Position numbers and translations under genes: made by a program
NCBI GenBank assembly: GCA_018970465.1
Contig: JAGWWI010000003.1
Span: forward strand, 1 to 63,555
Length of the DNA: 63,555 bases
DNA from: Patescibacteria group bacterium
Lineage (GTDB): Bacteria > Patescibacteriota > Minisyncoccia > Phycocordibacterales > Phycocordibacteraceae
Direction of reading: 5' to 3'
Shown: positions 4,032 through 9,003 of the stretch, one piece after another
How positions within the stretch are numbered: position 1 is the stretch's first letter
How the letters are laid out: the number at the start of each line of letters is the position of its first letter
Notes under the pieces: generated by a model
What the model was told of the DNA's origin: nothing
What the model saw: only the letters and a program-made list of their open reading frames with translations
Databases searched by the model: none

Positions 4032-4513
4032 CTATTCGAAGCGGTCAAACGTGAACCAGGTCATGGTCCCGACCGGGATGCGGTACCTCTCCTCAATCAC
4101 GATGCGCGGATTCTCGAAGACTGCATCCTTCCAGTCGAGCCCGAGGCTCGCGGCGGCTTCCTTGAGCGCCTCCTCGCTCGGCCCCTCTATCTCCATATAC
4201 GTCGGTATGCGCGGCCAGGTATCGATGTCGAAGGTGAGTTCGCCGAGCTTGAACGAACGATCGTCTCGATCTCCTCGGTATCCGTCGCGGTATTGGCGAT
4301 GTGATGCTTATACGTGAGCACCGTCGTCCCGCGCTTCGTGCGCAGCCGCAGCAGCTTGCCTCCGTCATCTCGCCATTTGAAGTCTTTATCGTAGATGATG
4401 ACTTCTTCGAGCATATCCTCCCCTTCGTCCGTCGCGCCGAGCGCCGCCAGACGCCGCTTAAGATCCTCGGCATCTACTTCGAGAAAGCGGACTTCGATCT
4501 CCCGATTCTGCAT
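4032..4513 (-). pseudogene. CYTH-domain (CyaB-like class IV cyclase/triphosphatase) gene disrupted by internal deletion plus frameshift
   Basis: The N-terminal half is ORF 4187..4513 (EIEVRFLEV..). The C-terminal half (SFKLGELTFDIDTWPRIPTYMEIEG..FDRFE*) reads in another frame down to the stop at 4032. The 482-nt span is not divisible by 3. About 25 codons are missing relative to the intact paralog at 16504..17088. Confidence 0.6.
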
Positions 4514-4516
4514 ACC

Positions 4517-4990
4517 TTATGCGCCGAGCGCCCTGAGGTCGGCGACCACTTCGGCGGCGTGCGCCTCGGGCTTCACCTTCTCGTAGACCTTCGCGACCTT
4601 CCCTGCCGGATCGATAAGGAAGGACGCGCGCGTCGTGCCCATGTAGGTCTTGCCGTACATCTTCTTCTCGCCGAAGACGCCGTAGCGCCCCACGACCTCC
4701 TTGTGCGCATCCGCGAGGAGCGTGAACGGGAGGTTGAAGCTCGTCGCGAACTTCTTATGGCTTTCGACGCTGTCGGTCGAGACGCCGACCACCTCCGCGC
4801 CGATAGCGCCGAAATCGGCGAACTGGTCGCGGAGCCCGCACGCCTCGATCGTGCAGCCTGGGGTGTCGTCCTTGGGGTAGAAATAGAGCAGCACCCACTT
4901 CCCCGCATACTCTGCGAGGGAATGCTCGCGCCCGTCCTGATCCGGGAGCGTGAACGCGGGCGCCGCCGTACCGACCTTAGGCATCTCCAT
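4517..4990 (-). CDS. bcp: Thiol peroxidase / peroxiredoxin, Bcp type
   Basis: APAFTLPDQDG..YFYPKDDTPGCT (peroxidatic Cys motif). Start taken at MEMPKVG. TATAAT lies 7 nt upstream of that ATG. Confidence 0.9.
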   Translation of the reverse strand: MEMPKVGTAAPAFTLPDQDGREHSLAEYAGKWVLLYFYPKDDTPGCTIEACGLRDQFADFGAIGAEVVGVSTDSVESHKKFATSFNLPFTLLADAHKEVVGRYGVFGEKKMYGKTYMGTTRASFLIDPAGKVAKVYEKVKPEAHAAEVVADLRALGA

Positions 4991-5735
4991 GTGGCGGATT
5001 ATAGGCGATAAAGTCCGTTTCCGCAGCAGCAATCGTCTTCTCGAATATCTGCACGAAGAGGTTTAAATGCCGCTCTTTCGTGTACTCCCGGCGGCAAGCT
5101 TTGTAGAAACGCTCATATTTTTCTTTGCCGAATACGTCGATGAGGTAAGCACTGAACGCCCCAGCAAGACTATAGAAGTATATGGCGTACCAGTCGTCGG
5201 TTTCCAACCACGCTTCGTGCCGGAAAAATGTTTCCAACGGCGGGTAGAGCCTTTTATTGTATCCCTCCGCAACATAGATACGGTGGGGCGTTCCGTCCCA
5301 TGCACGACCGACCATGTGCTCCGCCAAGCCTTCCTGCAAGAAACCGAACGCAAGGCCCCACGGGAGCGACAGCAGGTGCGTATCCTCATGCGGACCGATC
5401 GGCTTGGTTTTATCGGTATATAACACATGGATTCTGAACTCATCGTAAATCGACTGGGCGTACCAGTCGTCGCCCATCAACTCCGTTTTAATCGCCTCGG
5501 TTGGGTAGAAAAAATATTCGATCCGCTTATTGGGAGGCGTGACTCCCAAGAAGGCGATGATTTTCATATAGCCATTCTCCTGCGTCTGCACAATGTGTCG
5601 GATGTCTTTCTCGGCCTCAGACCCCGGAAAAAAATTGAACTCGTAGTGTTCAGAGTATTCGGACACGAAGCGTGTGTCCGTTTCGAAGTTGTGCCTATAG
5701 TTCGGCAAGTGCTGGTCGTAGGCCATTGTCGCCAT
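4977..5735 (-). CDS. Putative zinc metallopeptidase (HExxH, MA-clan / Peptidase_MA_2-like)
   Basis: Internal ATG (MATMAYDQ..) of ORF 4977..6107. HEDTH (HExxH) is followed by FLQEGLAEH, resembling the gluzincin third-ligand segment. Lower G+C than the flanks. Lies directly downstream of the radical SAM gene. Confidence 0.55.
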   Translation of the reverse strand: MATMAYDQHLPNYRHNFETDTRFVSEYSEHYEFNFFPGSEAEKDIRHIVQTQENGYMKIIAFLGVTPPNKRIEYFFYPTEAIKTELMGDDWYAQSIYDEFRIHVLYTDKTKPIGPHEDTHLLSLPWGLAFGFLQEGLAEHMVGRAWDGTPHRIYVAEGYNKRLYPPLETFFRHEAWLETDDWYAIYFYSLAGAFSAYLIDVFGKEKYERFYKACRREYTKERHLNLFVQIFEKTIAAAETDFIAYNPPHGDA

Positions 5736-5750
5736 AATAGCGCACAAGAT

Positions 5751-5779
5751 GGGCCCCGCAGCGCGCTGCTGCGGGGCCC
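5751..5779 (-). promoter_or_regulatory. 12-bp perfect stem-loop between the radical SAM gene and the peptidase gene
   Basis: gggccccgcagc-gcgct-gctgcggggccc. No U-tract follows, so it may act as a processing or stability element or a weak attenuator. Confidence 0.4.
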
Positions 5780-5784
5780 ACAAA

Positions 5785-7098
5785 TCAATAGTTAAGCTTA
5801 AGCAAGCCTTCGTTGTACACTTTGATGAGAGGCTTCTGACAGAAGCGCTCCGCGCCGCCTCCAGGCCCTCCAGCGGCCACCATCGCATCGTGAATGCAGC
5901 CGCCACCGCATATGGGCAAGAAGGCGCATCGCTCTTGGATGCACTGGTCGGTGCGCCTCCACGACTCGAACCGTTCGTCCCGGAGATACTCTCCGGGAGT
6001 ATCTGCCACCGTACCGAAGTCATACTCCGCCCTCCCAGCTGTGCAAAAGCACTTTTGGAGCGCTCCGTCGGGCTGGAGGATGGCTGCGTGCTTCGCGATA
6101 GCCACACACCAAGGACCGGTCACAAACTCATCGGGAATCGCGAAGCCGTGAGCCTGCGCGACGGCCCAAATGGACACAGCCTTTTCACCGAGCGCCCGTT
6201 CCTCGTCCCAACGCAAGCGCGCGGGACGATCAAGCGTCGGAGTGATGAGGCCAAGGCTCAGATTCATCCGATCCTGGGCGCCCAAACTCGCGAGATATTC
6301 GATGAGTTCAGGGATGCGATCCGCATTTGCGTGATCAAGCGAAATGCGAATATCGACCTTCTTTATGTAATCGGTCGAGACGAGCATTTTGATCGCCGCG
6401 ATTACATTACAGAACGTCTGTCGCCCGTGTTTACCCGGGCGGCGCGCGTTGTGTATGTCTTCGGGACCATCGAGAGTGATTTGTACTCGTAGCCATTGGT
6501 GTGTCGACAGCATTTCTGCGGTCGCCTCATCCAAGAGTTCGCCGTTGCTAACGAGCTCCGTCCAGAAATCAAGGCGACGCTCGGCAGCGAGCGAATGTGC
6601 CGCCACAAGCCCTTTCTCGACAATGTCCTTCCGCAGGAGCGGTTCACCGCCGAAAAGCACGAGTCGGAACGCATCAATTTCTGGGTGTTGATCGAGGTAA
6701 TTCGAGAGCCATAGTCGAGTCGCGTCAATTACCTTGTCGGACATCCCCCGCATGCGATCTCCGCCATTCTCGAAACAGTAGCCGCAGGCAAGTTGGCACT
6801 GAATGGTCGGCAGGAAGTGGAGAATGAAGATGTGCGCCTCGTTATTGCGCCGCCCTACCAGACGTTCCCGCCACGCGGCGTACTCGTCGCGGTCGGCCGA
6901 CACAAGCAAGCCAACCTCTGGCTGCGCGAGTGATTGGATGGCGCTCGTAACTTCACCGCCAGAAAGCTGTCTTTCCAATTCGGCTTCATCTGTCACAGAC
7001 ATCCTCACCACTGCACCCGTAAGGGTGCTCTTTATCGCCACGGAATCAGCATCCACTGGAACGCGAATGTGGAAGTCGCTCCATTTGACCTTCGTCAT
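5785..7098 (-). CDS. Radical SAM / SPASM-domain peptide-modifying enzyme
   Basis: CxxxCxxC (CQLACGYC) lies about 100 aa from the N-terminus, with GGEPLL after it. C-terminal SPASM-like Cys pattern: CVAIAKHAAILQPDGALQKC (C-x13-G-x4-C) and CIQERCAFLPICGGGC. Strong SD: GAGGAGGattttgacATG. Confidence 0.9.
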   Translation of the reverse strand: MTKVKWSDFHIRVPVDADSVAIKSTLTGAVVRMSVTDEAELERQLSGGEVTSAIQSLAQPEVGLLVSADRDEYAAWRERLVGRRNNEAHIFILHFLPTIQCQLACGYCFENGGDRMRGMSDKVIDATRLWLSNYLDQHPEIDAFRLVLFGGEPLLRKDIVEKGLVAAHSLAAERRLDFWTELVSNGELLDEATAEMLSTHQWLRVQITLDGPEDIHNARRPGKHGRQTFCNVIAAIKMLVSTDYIKKVDIRISLDHANADRIPELIEYLASLGAQDRMNLSLGLITPTLDRPARLRWDEERALGEKAVSIWAVAQAHGFAIPDEFVTGPWCVAIAKHAAILQPDGALQKCFCTAGRAEYDFGTVADTPGEYLRDERFESWRRTDQCIQERCAFLPICGGGCIHDAMVAAGGPGGGAERFCQKPLIKVYNEGLLKLNY

Positions 7099-7123
7099 GT
7101 CAAAATCCTCCTCGGGGTCAGGT

Positions 7124-7149
7124 CACCCCTCGGCCAAGGCCGAGGGGTG
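7124..7149 (-). promoter_or_regulatory. Palindromic hairpin between precursor ORF and radical SAM gene (attenuator-like)
   Basis: cacccctcggcc aa ggccgaggggtg, located 10 nt after the precursor stop and 26 nt before the rSAM start. Confidence 0.45.
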
Positions 7150-7158
7150 TGTGATGGC

Positions 7159-7320
7159 CTAGTACCCGCAACCGTCCTTCCCAAGCTTTGGAATAAGTCC
7201 GAAGCGGCGATCCGGGTGACCGATCTTCACGATCTCAATCACCATTTGATCCGTGGCGCTATTTTCGCTCGGGCTTCGGACACCCGCAGGCGCTGGAGTC
7301 TCTATGTTGCTCGGTAGCAT
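7159..7320 (-). CDS. Candidate RiPP precursor peptide, 53 aa (MLPSNIETPAPAGVRSPSENSATDQMVIEIVKIGHPDRRFGLIPKLGKDGCGY)
   Basis: Hand-translated; it is below the 60-aa cutoff of the ORF track. Strong SD (GAAGGAGAAACTG-ATG). Lies immediately upstream of the rSAM/SPASM gene, co-oriented with it. Confidence 0.6.
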   Translation of the reverse strand: MLPSNIETPAPAGVRSPSENSATDQMVIEIVKIGHPDRRFGLIPKLGKDGCGY

Positions 7321-7414
7321 CAGTTTCTCCTTCAGTATGGCGGGTCGGTCACAGCGACACCCTCCGTGGCAGAGGACAACAGAAGAGCGAGAAGAATCAA
7401 CGAATCAATTTGCC

Positions 7415-8575
7415 TTACCCTAAAGGGTCCTCGTCCGGATGCGCGAAGGCGAAGCGGAAGAAGATCGCGAGCAGCGCGCCGACCGAGAAGGACACGAGGA
7501 GGAGCACGATGATGAACCCCGCGACCGGGATGAGCGCCGCCAAAGAGAGCGCGAGGGTGCCGAGGACCGCGTCGCGCCAGCGTACGCCCCGCGTCTCGGT
7601 GAGGTAGCGCGCGGCCCCGACCCCGAGCGCGACGCCCGAGTACGCGAGCCCGAGGAGGACGAGGAGCGCGTAGAGGATCGCGAGCAGGATCGCGAGCCCG
7701 AGGCCGACGCCTGTGAGCGCCAAGAGGAGCACCAAGACGGGACCCACGACGAGCGCCGCGAAGCCGAGCAGGGTCACGAGCACGACGTGCCGCGGCGTGC
7801 GGCCGTACCCCTCGCCGACGACCGCGCCCGCAAGCCGCGGGAAGAGGCCCGCGATAAGCCCCGCGAGCAGGAGCGCCGCGAGGACGCGCACGAGGAGGAA
7901 GATGCCGATCGACGCGACCGAGAGCGAGCGCGAGACGCGCGCGCCCGGGAGGTAGGAGGCGGCGGTGTAGTGGACGCCGCCCGCGACCGCGGCCGCATCG
8001 AGCCCAGCAGCGGGCAGGGGCGCTTCGTAGGTGAGCGCGCCGCGGATCGCGGTCCCCGGGAGAAGCGTGAGGCGGTCGGCCGCGACGACCTTCACGTCGC
8101 CCGCGAAGGCGCCGCCCAAAGTGACGGTATTGCCGTAGATCGTGACGGGGCCGCCCGCCCCGCCAAGCGCCGCGACGGTCACGCCGGCGATGAAGGTGCT
8201 CCCTGCAGCCGGGCGCTCAGCGTGCACCGAGAGGCCGACCGCGCCGAGGTCGCCGCCGACCGAGCGTTCGAGCGTCACATTCCCCGCGAGGAGGCGGAGA
8301 TCGCCCGAGACGGGCGCGCGCACCGAGGCCGAGCCCGCGACGACGAGGAGATCCTGCCCCGTCGGAGCGGCGACGATGACCGAGCCGCCGAGCGCGGTCA
8401 GGTCGCCCGCGGTGGGCGAGGTGACGATCACGGACGAGCCCGCGTCGTAGGCGTTCCCGGGCGACGAGCTCGCGACCACGAGCGCCTGGCCGGTGTGGAG
8501 CGCAGCAGGCGCGGCCGCGGCGAACGCCGCAGCTGGCGCAAGGAGCGCGAGGGCGAGCCAGGGGGCGTAGCGCAT
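7415..8575 (-). CDS. Membrane protein with signal peptide, beta-helix/bactofilin-like GD-repeat domain and C-terminal multi-TM region
   Basis: Internal ATG (MRYAPWLALALLAPAAAFA). Repetitive ..GDL..G.V.V.. segments, then long hydrophobic stretches. The antisense 510-aa ORF is judged a shadow. Confidence 0.55.
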   Translation of the reverse strand: MRYAPWLALALLAPAAAFAAAAPAALHTGQALVVASSSPGNAYDAGSSVIVTSPTAGDLTALGGSVIVAAPTGQDLLVVAGSASVRAPVSGDLRLLAGNVTLERSVGGDLGAVGLSVHAERPAAGSTFIAGVTVAALGGAGGPVTIYGNTVTLGGAFAGDVKVVAADRLTLLPGTAIRGALTYEAPLPAAGLDAAAVAGGVHYTAASYLPGARVSRSLSVASIGIFLLVRVLAALLLAGLIAGLFPRLAGAVVGEGYGRTPRHVVLVTLLGFAALVVGPVLVLLLALTGVGLGLAILLAILYALLVLLGLAYSGVALGVGAARYLTETRGVRWRDAVLGTLALSLAALIPVAGFIIVLLLVSFSVGALLAIFFRFAFAHPDEDPLG

Positions 8576-8599
8576 ACGCTGAAATGGTACCATAGCGCC

Positions 8600-8971
8600 A
8601 TGAAAGAACTCACCCCGGAGGAAAAGGAAGTGATCGAGAATGGCGGAACGGAGGCGCCCTTCAGGGGCGCGTACGTCGACAACCACGAACCGGGCGTCTA
8701 CCGCTGCAAGAAGTGCGGGCAGGTGCTCTTCCGCTCCGACGAGAAGTTCGACTCCGGCTCGGGGTGGCCGTCGTTCACCGACCCGGCGGTCGCGGAGCAC
8801 ATTGGCACGCGCGCCGACGATAGCCATGGCATGTCGAGAACCGAGGTCTACTGCAAGAACTGCGGCGCGCACCTCGGGCACCTCTTCGACGACGGCCCCG
8901 CCGAGAAAGGCGGCAAGCGCTACTGCATCAACTCGATCTGCCTGGATTTCGAAAAGGGTGCGTCGATGTAA
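8600..8971 (+). CDS. msrB: Peptide-methionine (R)-S-oxide reductase
   Basis: MKELTPEEKEVIENGGTEAPF..YRCKKCGQVLF..GWPSF..CKNCGAHLGHLF. This is the SelR/MsrB signature with two CxxC pairs. Confidence 0.92.
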   Translation: MKELTPEEKEVIENGGTEAPFRGAYVDNHEPGVYRCKKCGQVLFRSDEKFDSGSGWPSFTDPAVAEHIGTRADDSHGMSRTEVYCKNCGAHLGHLFDDGPAEKGGKRYCINSICLDFEKGASM

Positions 8972-9003
8972 CCAGCCCATCTGCGCCTCATGTTTACTCG
9001 AGT

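Follow-up and report, generated by a model that had tools for sequence, protein, structure and literature searches.

A compact precursor, radical SAM/SPASM enzyme, and gluzincin cassette of Patescibacteria with a proposed role in peptide maturation

We analyzed a stretch of 63,555 nucleotides from a Patescibacteria group bacterium (contig JAGWWI010000003.1, assembly GCA_018970465.1), hereafter called the window, which carries five elements in a row on its minus strand between positions 4977 and 7320. According to the listing of open reading frames (ORFs) and our reading of the strand, these are, in the direction of transcription, a 53-aa ORF, a stem-loop, the gene of a 437-aa radical S-adenosylmethionine (SAM) protein, a second stem-loop, and the gene of an HExxH protein of about 250 aa. 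An earlier note, made from the sequence alone, had described these five elements and read them as a compact cassette for a peptide synthesized ribosomally and modified post-translationally (RiPP), with a precursor, a radical SAM/SPASM enzyme, and an MA-type peptidase. All five were recovered at these positions, and the conserved gene order, the predicted fold of a RiPP recognition element (RRE), the matches to RiPP maturases, and the gluzincin motif agree with that reading. We regard a self-contained three-gene RiPP cassette of Patescibacteria (candidate phyla radiation, CPR; mainly of the Parcubacteria type), with a proposed cross-linking of the precursor tail and removal of the leader, as the best overall explanation and as a probable one. 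The features are listed here in the direction of transcription, with the evidence in brackets.

7327–7332, minus strand: Shine-Dalgarno-like AAGGAG, 6 nt before the precursor ATG (read from sequence)
7159–7320, minus strand: precursor gene, 53 aa, MLPSNIETPAPAGVRSPSENSATDQMVIEIVKIGHPDRRFGLIPKLGKDGCGY (ORF listing; homologous small ORFs beside the radical SAM gene)
7201–7242, minus strand: conserved leader motif, residues 27–40, VIEIVKIGHPDRRF (alignment of 21 precursors)
7162–7182, minus strand: core/tail codons G-K-D-G-C-G-Y (precursor alignment, profile matches, codon comparison)
7124–7149, minus strand: stem-loop 1 between the precursor and radical SAM genes, 11-bp GC-rich stem, 4-nt loop, without T-run (folding)
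7107–7113, minus strand: Shine-Dalgarno-like GAGGAGG upstream of the radical SAM ATG at 7098 (sequence)
5785–7098, minus strand: putative radical SAM/SPASM peptide maturase, 437 aa (Pfam, NCBIfam, AlphaFold2, Foldseek)
6829–7098, minus strand: RRE-like N-terminal domain, residues 1–90 (AlphaFold2 secondary structure; alignments to CteB, TigE, and SuiB)
6775–6798, minus strand: C101-x3-C105-x2-C108, radical SAM [4Fe-4S] cluster site (invariant in 34/34 aligned homologs)
5839–6108, minus strand: SPASM-type auxiliary-cluster region with C331, C350, C352, C386, C391, C397, C401, and C420 (34-homolog alignment)
5749–5781, minus strand: stem-loop 2 between the radical SAM and peptidase genes, 14-bp stem, 5-nt loop (folding)
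4977–5735, minus strand: gluzincin-type zinc metallopeptidase (motif, Pfam matches in homologs, AlphaFold2, Foldseek, synteny)
5319–5390, minus strand: zinc/catalytic motif H116-E-D-T-H120 ... E139, HExxH-x18-E (invariant alignment columns)

The putative precursor, maturase, and peptidase

The putative precursor begins with MLPSN and ends with KLGKDGCGY. It had been described before as an unannotated ORF with a strong Shine-Dalgarno sequence, which is correct: the window ORF is not in the protein database, AAGGAG lies at a suitable position, and gene callers skip the small ORF in several other loci, too. In the precursor alignment, an N-terminal part that is both variable and hydrophilic is followed by the leader block, with the family pattern [VIL][VLI]K-x-G-x3-4-R-[RF]-F, and then by [KR]-[MFL]-G-K-D-x-C-G-Y. 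The tail's Asp, Cys, Gly, and Tyr show no variation among the 18 aligned canonical precursors or in any further CGY-ending precursor, D-x-C is common to all 30 recognizable precursors, and Tyr is the very last residue in 26/26 canonical precursors. A Lys three residues before the Cys is usual, with Leu or Gln instead at this position (−6) in 3 of 18 precursors. The synonymous sites of the last eight codons are free (GAT/GAC 11:11, TGT/TGC 16:6, GGC, GGT, or GGG, TAC or TAT, and all three stop codons). As the third codon positions vary and the tail amino acids are fixed, selection acts on the peptide and not on an RNA or DNA motif.

When a profile built from two precursors was searched against 1.84 billion representative proteins, 10 proteins of 45–56 aa were found at E ≤ 0.001, all of which end with KDGCGY; the same search additionally returned one 736-aa protein at 7.1e-4. 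In a word-indexed search of proteins, the 53-aa precursor recovered one homolog only, because most homologs are either uncalled or have too few common words. Neither Pfam nor NCBIfam gave a match to the window precursor or to five others, even at E = 10. The core contains one invariant Cys, or two in the variant described below, and is not Cys-rich as in SCIFF.

Some comparison loci, which we denote by L numbers, deviate from the canonical precursor. A branch with radical SAM enzymes of 41–44% identity has two adjacent Cys residues in the tail (CC-type), with the endings KDSCCGGRY, KDACCGGR, KDSCCGSRY, and KDGCCVYNR in L021, L023, L024, and L100 (about 1380–1480). These precursors retain K-D-x-C, and the Tyr is displaced (KDGCCVYNR) or absent (KDACCGGR). 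Just upstream of the cassette (1–804), the marine CC-type locus L100 also carries genes for another Radical_SAM/SPASM protein and for a class I methyltransferase. In L017 (3600–4000), radical SAM and peptidase genes are intact and no precursor is recognizable; a remnant reading '...LNFGVPVSY*' may be a decayed copy. In L019 (400–780), a frameshift splits the precursor between leader (LRFGPVVTGQV) and tail (LGKDGCGY), and the intact version is found in L098.

The 437-aa protein matches the Pfam family Radical_SAM (PF04055; 3e-12, 47 bits versus a cut-off of 29.5), and the invariance of C101, C105, and C108 in all 34 aligned homologs is in line with its previous description as a radical SAM protein with a CxxxCxxC motif. 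The claim of a full SPASM-type Cys pattern holds in part. An eight-Cys pattern is conserved (C331-x13-G-x4-C350-x-C352 ... C386-x4-C391-x5-C397-x3-C401 ... C420; seven Cys invariant and C352 nearly so), and the region aligns with the SPASM region of CteB. However, the motif has Cx4C where Cx2C is canonical, and the Pfam SPASM hidden Markov model (HMM) misses the window copy.

The stretch in front of the CxxxCxxC motif had been considered long enough for a fused RRE/PqqD-like domain. The AlphaFold2 model of the maturase, which has a pLDDT of 91 overall and of about 90–96 in residues 1–100, places strands at residues 10–16, 19–24, and 30–34, followed by helices at 35–47, 52–58, and 72–86. This predicted arrangement of residues 10–86, three strands and then three helices, is the topology of the RRE/PqqD type. 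A Foldseek search with the model returned CteB as the top match (3e-16, TM 0.67–0.70) and also TigE, the anaerobic sulfatase-maturing enzyme (anSME), SuiB, and ChlB, at 13–20% identity; the alignments to CteB, TigE, and SuiB are full-length and span the N-terminal domain. A sequence-profile search of the PDB likewise gave CteB as the best match (5WGG, 7.5e-23), followed by TigE, ChlB, anSME, and SkfB. The top NCBIfam matches are all RiPP maturases, among them TIGR04463 (4e-44, with an alignment that starts at residue 11), CefB, geopeptide, Clo7bot, FlmE/OhkG, nif11, and PapB, all of them below cut-off, and models for non-RiPP radical SAM/SPASM enzymes (anSME, NirJ) score far below the models for RiPP maturases. 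Membership in TIGR04463, CefB, SCIFF, and PapB was rejected on the basis of scores of 151 versus 525, 148 versus 600, 66 versus 425, and 93.5 versus 340 bits, respectively. We thus agree with the earlier view that the system fits no named RiPP class, as even the best maturase model, TIGR04463, remains that far below its cut-off.

Among characterized systems, the ranthipeptide maturase CteB of Clostridium thermocellum (PDB 5WGG/5WHY) with its substrate SCIFF shares the layout of an RRE-like N-terminus, a radical SAM core, and a SPASM-type region, and also the small substrate peptide that has a Cys near its C-terminus and is encoded beside the enzyme. CteB is a thioether-forming enzyme. The differences are the low identity of 15–18%, the score of 66 versus a cut-off of 425 bits with TIGR03974, the six Cys of SCIFF precursors versus the single invariant Cys found here (two in the CC variant), the Cx4C instead of Cx2C in the SPASM region, and the gluzincin, which is a fixed partner in the present family. 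The best HMM matches, TIGR04463, CefB (NF038107), geopeptide (TIGR04280), and Clo7bot (TIGR04334), are aligned almost from end to end, N-terminal domain included (E 4e-44 to 2e-35), but their 122–151 bits compare with cut-offs of 400–600, and their precursors are Cys-rich.

The peptidase gene has a first ATG at 5735 (252 aa) and a second one at 5726 (249 aa). The latter is the database gene call and fits better to the N-termini of the homologs, and we therefore consider the start at ATG 5726, giving 249 aa, more likely. The prior assignment of the HEDTH...EGLAEH protein to the gluzincins is supported by the motif, the Pfam matches of its homologs, and the fold. H116, E117, D118, H120, E135, G136, L137, and E139 are invariant in the peptidase alignment, and their spacing is that of an M1-type gluzincin. 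Pfam Peptidase_MA_2 (PF13485) matched 20 of 34 peptidase homologs, with 5e-6 as the best value, and the precomputed annotation of five peptidase homologs among the matches listed also contains PF13485. The window protein itself had no match to PF13485 at E ≤ 1 and none in NCBIfam. Its AlphaFold2 model (pLDDT 94) was matched by Foldseek to M9 collagenases, M1 aminopeptidases/LTA4H, and the M30 peptidase lugdulysin (E 1e-4 to 1e-2, TMq 0.45–0.60). In a sequence-profile search of the PDB, the peptidase alignment had no significant match; a molybdate-binding protein came closest, at 0.25.

The protein thus resembles Peptidase_MA_2 and the M1, M9, and M30 gluzincins in its HExxH-x18-E motif and in its fold (TM 0.5–0.6 to 4AR8, 4ARE, 3FUI, and 7BB8). 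It differs in being a single 250-aa catalytic domain below Pfam detection, and its family lacks the GxMEN exopeptidase motif and has an invariant L-M-G-D-D-W-Y-A-Q in the equivalent region. No signal peptide or transmembrane segment is evident. The family has about 270 database members, all of which are unnamed. Stand-alone homologs of about 48% identity occur at 5001–5747 of L094 (Yonathbacteria, MHUY01000016) and at 5001–5753 of L096, with no radical SAM gene or CGY peptide within 5 kb; their neighbors there are NYN, Peptidase_S49, NUDIX, and GARS genes.

Conservation and stem-loops across loci

Upstream flanks were evaluated in 31 loci (the window, L001–L011, L013–L030, L093, and L097–L102), and the downstream evaluation covered the 28 loci with enough sequence. 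A small upstream ORF with a C-terminal D-x-C is present in 30/31 loci, all of which belong to Patescibacteria/CPR genomes or metagenomes. Its tail is D-x-C-G-Y-stop in 26 loci, including the frameshifted L019, and of the CC-type in 4, with L017 as the locus that has none recognizable. The gluzincin gene follows directly downstream of the radical SAM gene in 28/28 evaluable loci. The earlier note had suggested checking whether the small ORF is conserved beside radical SAM homologs and whether these homologs instead accompany sulfatases; the ORF is conserved as described, and close homologs are never beside sulfatases in about 30 loci.

The radical SAM homologs among the matches listed form 120 clusters at 90% identity and are 41–73% identical to the window enzyme. 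The named taxa among these matches are all Patescibacteria/CPR (Kaiserbacteria, Pacebacteria/Paceibacterota, Minisyncoccota, and 'Patescibacteria group'); a few sources are given as 'bacterium', and most are nameless. For the pathway as a whole, the sources also include Wolfebacteria, and the samples are groundwater, sediment, soil, sludge, and marine material. The metagenome scan showed a clear gap, as substantial family matches are at least 41% identical (39% for two short contig-end fragments) and the next relatives at most 29%. The nearest outgroup radical SAM loci, with about 27% identity, have long precursors with Cys/Gly/Ala repeats as well as ABC transporters, and no MA peptidase. An all-against-all BLAST comparison of the flanking ORFs of the 28 loci revealed no further universal neighbor such as a transporter, an immunity gene, or a second enzyme.

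Synteny of the cassette is kept across hosts of 33–65% G+C, and the flanking genes differ. In the window, the cassette has a G+C content of 0.556 versus 0.651 for the rest, and its GC3 is 0.64–0.66 versus 0.85–0.88 for the genes bcp and nth, so that the lower-G+C stretch between high-G+C genes that had been pointed out before is real. Across hosts, the cassette is drawn to about 0.45–0.55: it lies below its flanks by 9 points in the window and by 6 points in L016 and L097, and above them by 5–6 points in the low-GC loci L013 and L018. It is mostly somewhat above low-GC hosts, with L008 as an exception. This pattern of base composition could reflect a horizontal spread of the cassette among CPR lineages.

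The two hairpins had been given as 12-bp palindromes. Both are present, with stems of 11 and 14 bp instead. The intergenic segment with stem-loop 1 folds with a ΔG of −26.4 kcal/mol (z = −2.9) and stem-loop 2 with −32.6 kcal/mol (z = −4.7); none of 200 dinucleotide shuffles matched the folding of either. A counterpart of stem-loop 1, with a stem of 9–15 bp after the precursor gene, was found in 18 of 19 other loci that were folded, the exception being L020, and a counterpart of stem-loop 2 in 15/15 other loci in which the spacer between radical SAM and peptidase genes could be folded. The stem sequences are unrelated between loci, and their position is kept across loci of 33–57% G+C. A scan of positions 4400–7700 for consensus terminators and promoters gave nothing at either hairpin, and the number of sites was no higher than in shuffles. 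As the terminator scan missed both of them, the window hairpins are not canonical intrinsic terminators.

A −10-like TATTAT (5734–5739) lies 7 nt upstream of the peptidase ATG at 5726, and no Shine-Dalgarno sequence is found there. The next gene, bcp, shows the same geometry, also without Shine-Dalgarno sequence. As judged from the sequence, a −10-like box 7 nt before the ATG in both genes fits leaderless mRNAs. TATAAT-like boxes just before the peptidase ATG also occur in L003, L008, L010, L011, and L020.

Proposed pathway and competing explanations

In the pathway that we propose, the 53-aa gene would be translated into a precursor with a leader strand and the core [MFL]-G-K-D-x-C-G-Y, and the leader strand would dock on the RRE-like domain of the enzyme, as an analogy to RRE-dependent maturases suggests. 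The C101/C105/C108 cluster would then cleave SAM, and the resulting 5'-deoxyadenosyl radical would abstract a hydrogen from a core residue; the thiolate of the invariant Cys would be activated on the SPASM auxiliary cluster, which would result in one intramolecular thioether. We propose this step because of the chemistry of the nearest relatives and because of the residues that never vary. The acceptor carbon would most likely be the C-beta of the Asp two residues upstream, which would close a D-x-C ring; the alternative would be a carbon of the C-terminal Tyr. As K-D-x-C is retained while Tyr moves or is lost in the CC-type branch, Asp and Cys are favored as the reacting pair. A link from Cys to the C-terminal Tyr is also plausible and would account for the constant final position of Tyr in the main clade. 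That the locus is a RiPP cassette acting on the C-terminal tail is very likely. Thioether chemistry, for which the known relatives are the guide, has in our view an even chance, and Asp as the thioether acceptor, again by analogy, is a tentative and individually rather doubtful assignment.

After cross-linking, the cytoplasmic gluzincin would remove the leader, perhaps by cutting after the K/R at −9 and before the M/F/L at −8, which would yield a cross-linked peptide of about eight residues. The conservation of these two positions suggests a thermolysin-like cut with a hydrophobic P1' residue; the role of the gluzincin as leader peptidase is something we infer. A terminator-like element just after the precursor gene is a familiar means of raising the precursor mRNA over the enzyme mRNA. 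Stem-loop 1 would probably be a leaky terminator or an mRNA-stabilizing 3' end and thereby cause more precursor transcript than enzyme transcript, and stem-loop 2 would set the radical SAM gene apart from the peptidase gene; the latter apparently has a −10 box of its own.

PapB and QhpD form Cys-Asp links. Together with NxxcB, these radical SAM enzymes, which couple a single Cys sulfur with the beta-carbon of an Asn or Asp close by, are a possible model for K-D-x-C-G-Y-COOH. In the beta-thioether formed by NxxcB of the streptococcal NxxC RaS-RiPP system, the acceptor is an Asn that lies upstream of the Cys, and Asp is tolerated at this position (PMC9389541). PapB, the freyrasin enzyme, links Cys to the carbon beside a carboxylate, can use the C-alpha of a C-terminal residue in this way, and requires the carboxylate to be free; as C-terminal acceptor it accepted none of the tested L-residues Ala, Lys, Phe, Asn, Ile, or Gln and processed only Gly (PMC12373016). 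The differences are that the PapB model NF047865 gives 93.5 versus 340 bits and that the ring would be i,i+2 here versus i,i+3 or i,i+4 there.

Several points weigh against this pathway or parts of it. Similar-looking radical SAM/SPASM enzymes catalyze thioether, C–C, and ether formation, epimerization, cyclopropanation, and decarboxylation, and we infer the chemistry from enzymes of 13–20% identity with HMM scores far below the cut-offs. The Pfam SPASM HMM (PF13186) left the window copy unmatched and matched 1 of 34 family members, which is probably due to the Cx4C spacing. The strictly C-terminal Tyr of all 26 canonical precursors is unexplained if Tyr is uninvolved, L017 has no recognizable precursor, and that of L019 is frameshifted. 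The peptidase family is broader than the cassette and need not serve only the precursor. The stems of the window, with its 65% G+C, have no T-tails; in low-GC genomes, T-runs come after the stems and give them the look of intrinsic terminators. Finally, the acceptor carboxylate of PapB has to lie on the C-terminal side of the Cys (PMC12373016), contrary to the order in D-x-C.

The strictly terminal Tyr leads to the question of whether the chemistry could instead be centered on this residue, as in the mycofactocin and PQQ pathways, with an oxidative decarboxylation and/or a C–C (or C–S) bond at the C-terminal Tyr and a peptidase that trims the product to a small redox cofactor or signal. Those systems share with the present one a short precursor with a core that is invariant across distant hosts and with reactive residues, including Tyr, near the C-terminus, a radical SAM/SPASM enzyme plus a peptidase, and no transporter. 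PqqA has E-x3-Y, comparable to the Asp and Tyr at i and i+4 in D-G-C-G-Y, and MftA ends with ...DGxCGVY, to which the tail bears some resemblance, too. A core that is near-invariant across enzymes of 41–73% identity is typical of cofactor precursors, the cassette is free of transporter and immunity genes, a signal peptide is not evident in the peptidase, and the MftC and PqqE models do match the enzyme core (2e-12 and 4.6e-12). However, membership in MftC (TIGR03962, 47 versus 265 bits) and PqqE (TIGR02109, 45.6 versus 381 bits) was rejected on the score cut-offs, whereas models of thioether-type maturases reach 94–151 bits. Homologs of MftB/D/E/F or PqqB/C/D are not conserved nearby in the comparison of 28 flanks, the tail is CGY and not CGVY, or D-x3-Y versus the E-x3-Y of PQQ, the precursor has no NCBIfam match, and the RRE is fused to the window enzyme but separate in those systems. 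MftE belongs to the creatininase family and PqqF is an M16 peptidase, whereas the peptidase here is a gluzincin. As a Gly precedes the Tyr, the Val C-beta used in mycofactocin is missing, and the CC-type branch has its Tyr displaced or lost altogether. We consider Tyr-centered chemistry, although it is the main rival, unlikely. We give a similarly low probability to the proposal that the product is not an antibiotic but a small, conserved, cross-linked cofactor-like or signaling compound derived from K-D-x-C-G-Y in Parcubacteria-type CPR, with a logic like that of PQQ and mycofactocin; it is an improbable outcome that we mention because the core is invariant down to about 41% enzyme identity, the peptidase is cytoplasmic, there is no transporter or immunity gene, and the cassette has apparently spread horizontally. 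More generally, the invariant core and the lack of a transporter or immunity gene argue for a conserved target, be it as a signal, a cofactor-like compound, or a host-interaction factor, over an arms-race antibiotic.

A further rival is a modification of a single residue, such as oxidation of the Cys to formylglycine as catalyzed by anSME, or an epimerization or methylation, in which case any ring would form spontaneously, for example from the aldehyde and the Lys amine. Indeed, anSME is among the best structural matches (TM 0.57–0.70, E about 1e-13; sequence profile 3.8e-13), and the Lys is usually present three residues before the Cys. Yet 3 of 18 precursors have Leu or Gln in place of this Lys, the C/S-x-P/A-x-R motif of sulfatases is absent from the substrate, and anSME lacks the N-terminal RRE-like domain that the window enzyme has. 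An anSME/sulfatase function was rejected, as the anSME equivalog TIGR03942 scores 65.5 bits versus a cut-off of 349 and no sulfatase occurs in the approximately 30 loci, and we regard any such single-residue change as very unlikely. Equally remote is the idea that the locus is no RiPP system at all. In that case, the short reading frame would encode a regulatory leader peptide or be a chance occurrence in a 5' untranslated region, the radical SAM enzyme would act on another substrate, and the HExxH protein, a housekeeping protease with no relation to the other two, would be syntenic by coincidence. The small ORF is uncalled in the window and several other loci, orphan copies of the peptidase exist, and conserved hairpins beside a short ORF could be an attenuator. 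But the C-terminal heptapeptide is conserved as amino acids with free third codon positions and three different stop codons, the ORF has a good Shine-Dalgarno sequence, the enzyme has a domain of the peptide-recognition type with peptide maturases as its top family matches, and the order of the genes is kept across hosts of 33–65% G+C despite differing flanking genes. A less drastic variant, which we consider unlikely, accepts the RiPP cassette and gives the HExxH protein another task, in immunity or degradation or as a general peptidase with further substrates. The stand-alone homologs in L094 and L096 would fit this, as would the position of the gene behind a terminator-like hairpin and with its own −10-like box in many loci. 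Against it stand the location directly downstream in 28/28 cassettes, the invariant catalytic motif, and the lack of a signal peptide, which places the protein in the same compartment as the precursor.

The architecture of precursor, radical SAM/SPASM enzyme, and protease is already well known. New here, and restricted to CPR, are a precursor with the KDxCGY tail, a separate clade of maturases, and the gluzincin as a fixed partner; no NCBIfam or Pfam model covers them at threshold, and a literature search on CPR/Patescibacteria/Parcubacteria with radical SAM, SPASM, RiPP, or ranthipeptide found no description of the cassette. CPR bacteria have genomes of about 1 Mb and are mostly uncultured. 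Few or no biosynthetic gene clusters are routinely reported for them, one survey giving 9 for the phylum (PMC8692599), yet many CPR lineages share what appears to be a complete and very compact RiPP pathway. The short precursor with its near-invariant core makes the system easy to test. Possible gains are a radical SAM cross-link of a new kind on a minimal substrate, a new family of leader peptidases, and initial access to a small molecule that these episymbionts, for all the extreme reduction of their genomes, have apparently retained. If the product were a cofactor or signal, it would be the first such molecule from minimal-genome symbionts, possibly with unseen chemistry in the form of a D-x-C or C-G-Y micro-ring.

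Neighboring genes

In five loci, a second small HExxH protein of about 220 aa with the motif HELTHF is encoded 1–3 kb from the cassette, on either side (L004 1594–2256, L007 3955–4635, L010 7103–7753, L008, and L026). It has no Pfam match and is not present in the window. An Rfam scan of the whole window gave a single tRNA, and no riboswitch or leader was found near the cassette.

The 3' end of the cassette overlaps bcp, which had been noted before together with a TATAAT box belonging to bcp. The overlap between bcp, with its ATG at 4990, and the peptidase gene amounts to 14 nt, and TATAAT is located at 4998–5003, 7 nt upstream of this ATG. On the other side, positions 7415–8980 of the window have 75% G+C, and long ORFs are open on both strands. 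The minus-strand product, of about 386 aa, would start with a signal-like N-terminus and contain repeats rich in Gly, Ala, and Val as well as several membrane segments toward its C-terminus; it has no Pfam match. The plus-strand ORF has an end (about 8590–8971) that we take to be MsrB-like, as recognized by eye only. The cassette with its oxygen-sensitive radical SAM enzyme thus appears to be flanked by two oxidative-stress genes, bcp and the presumed MsrB-like gene.

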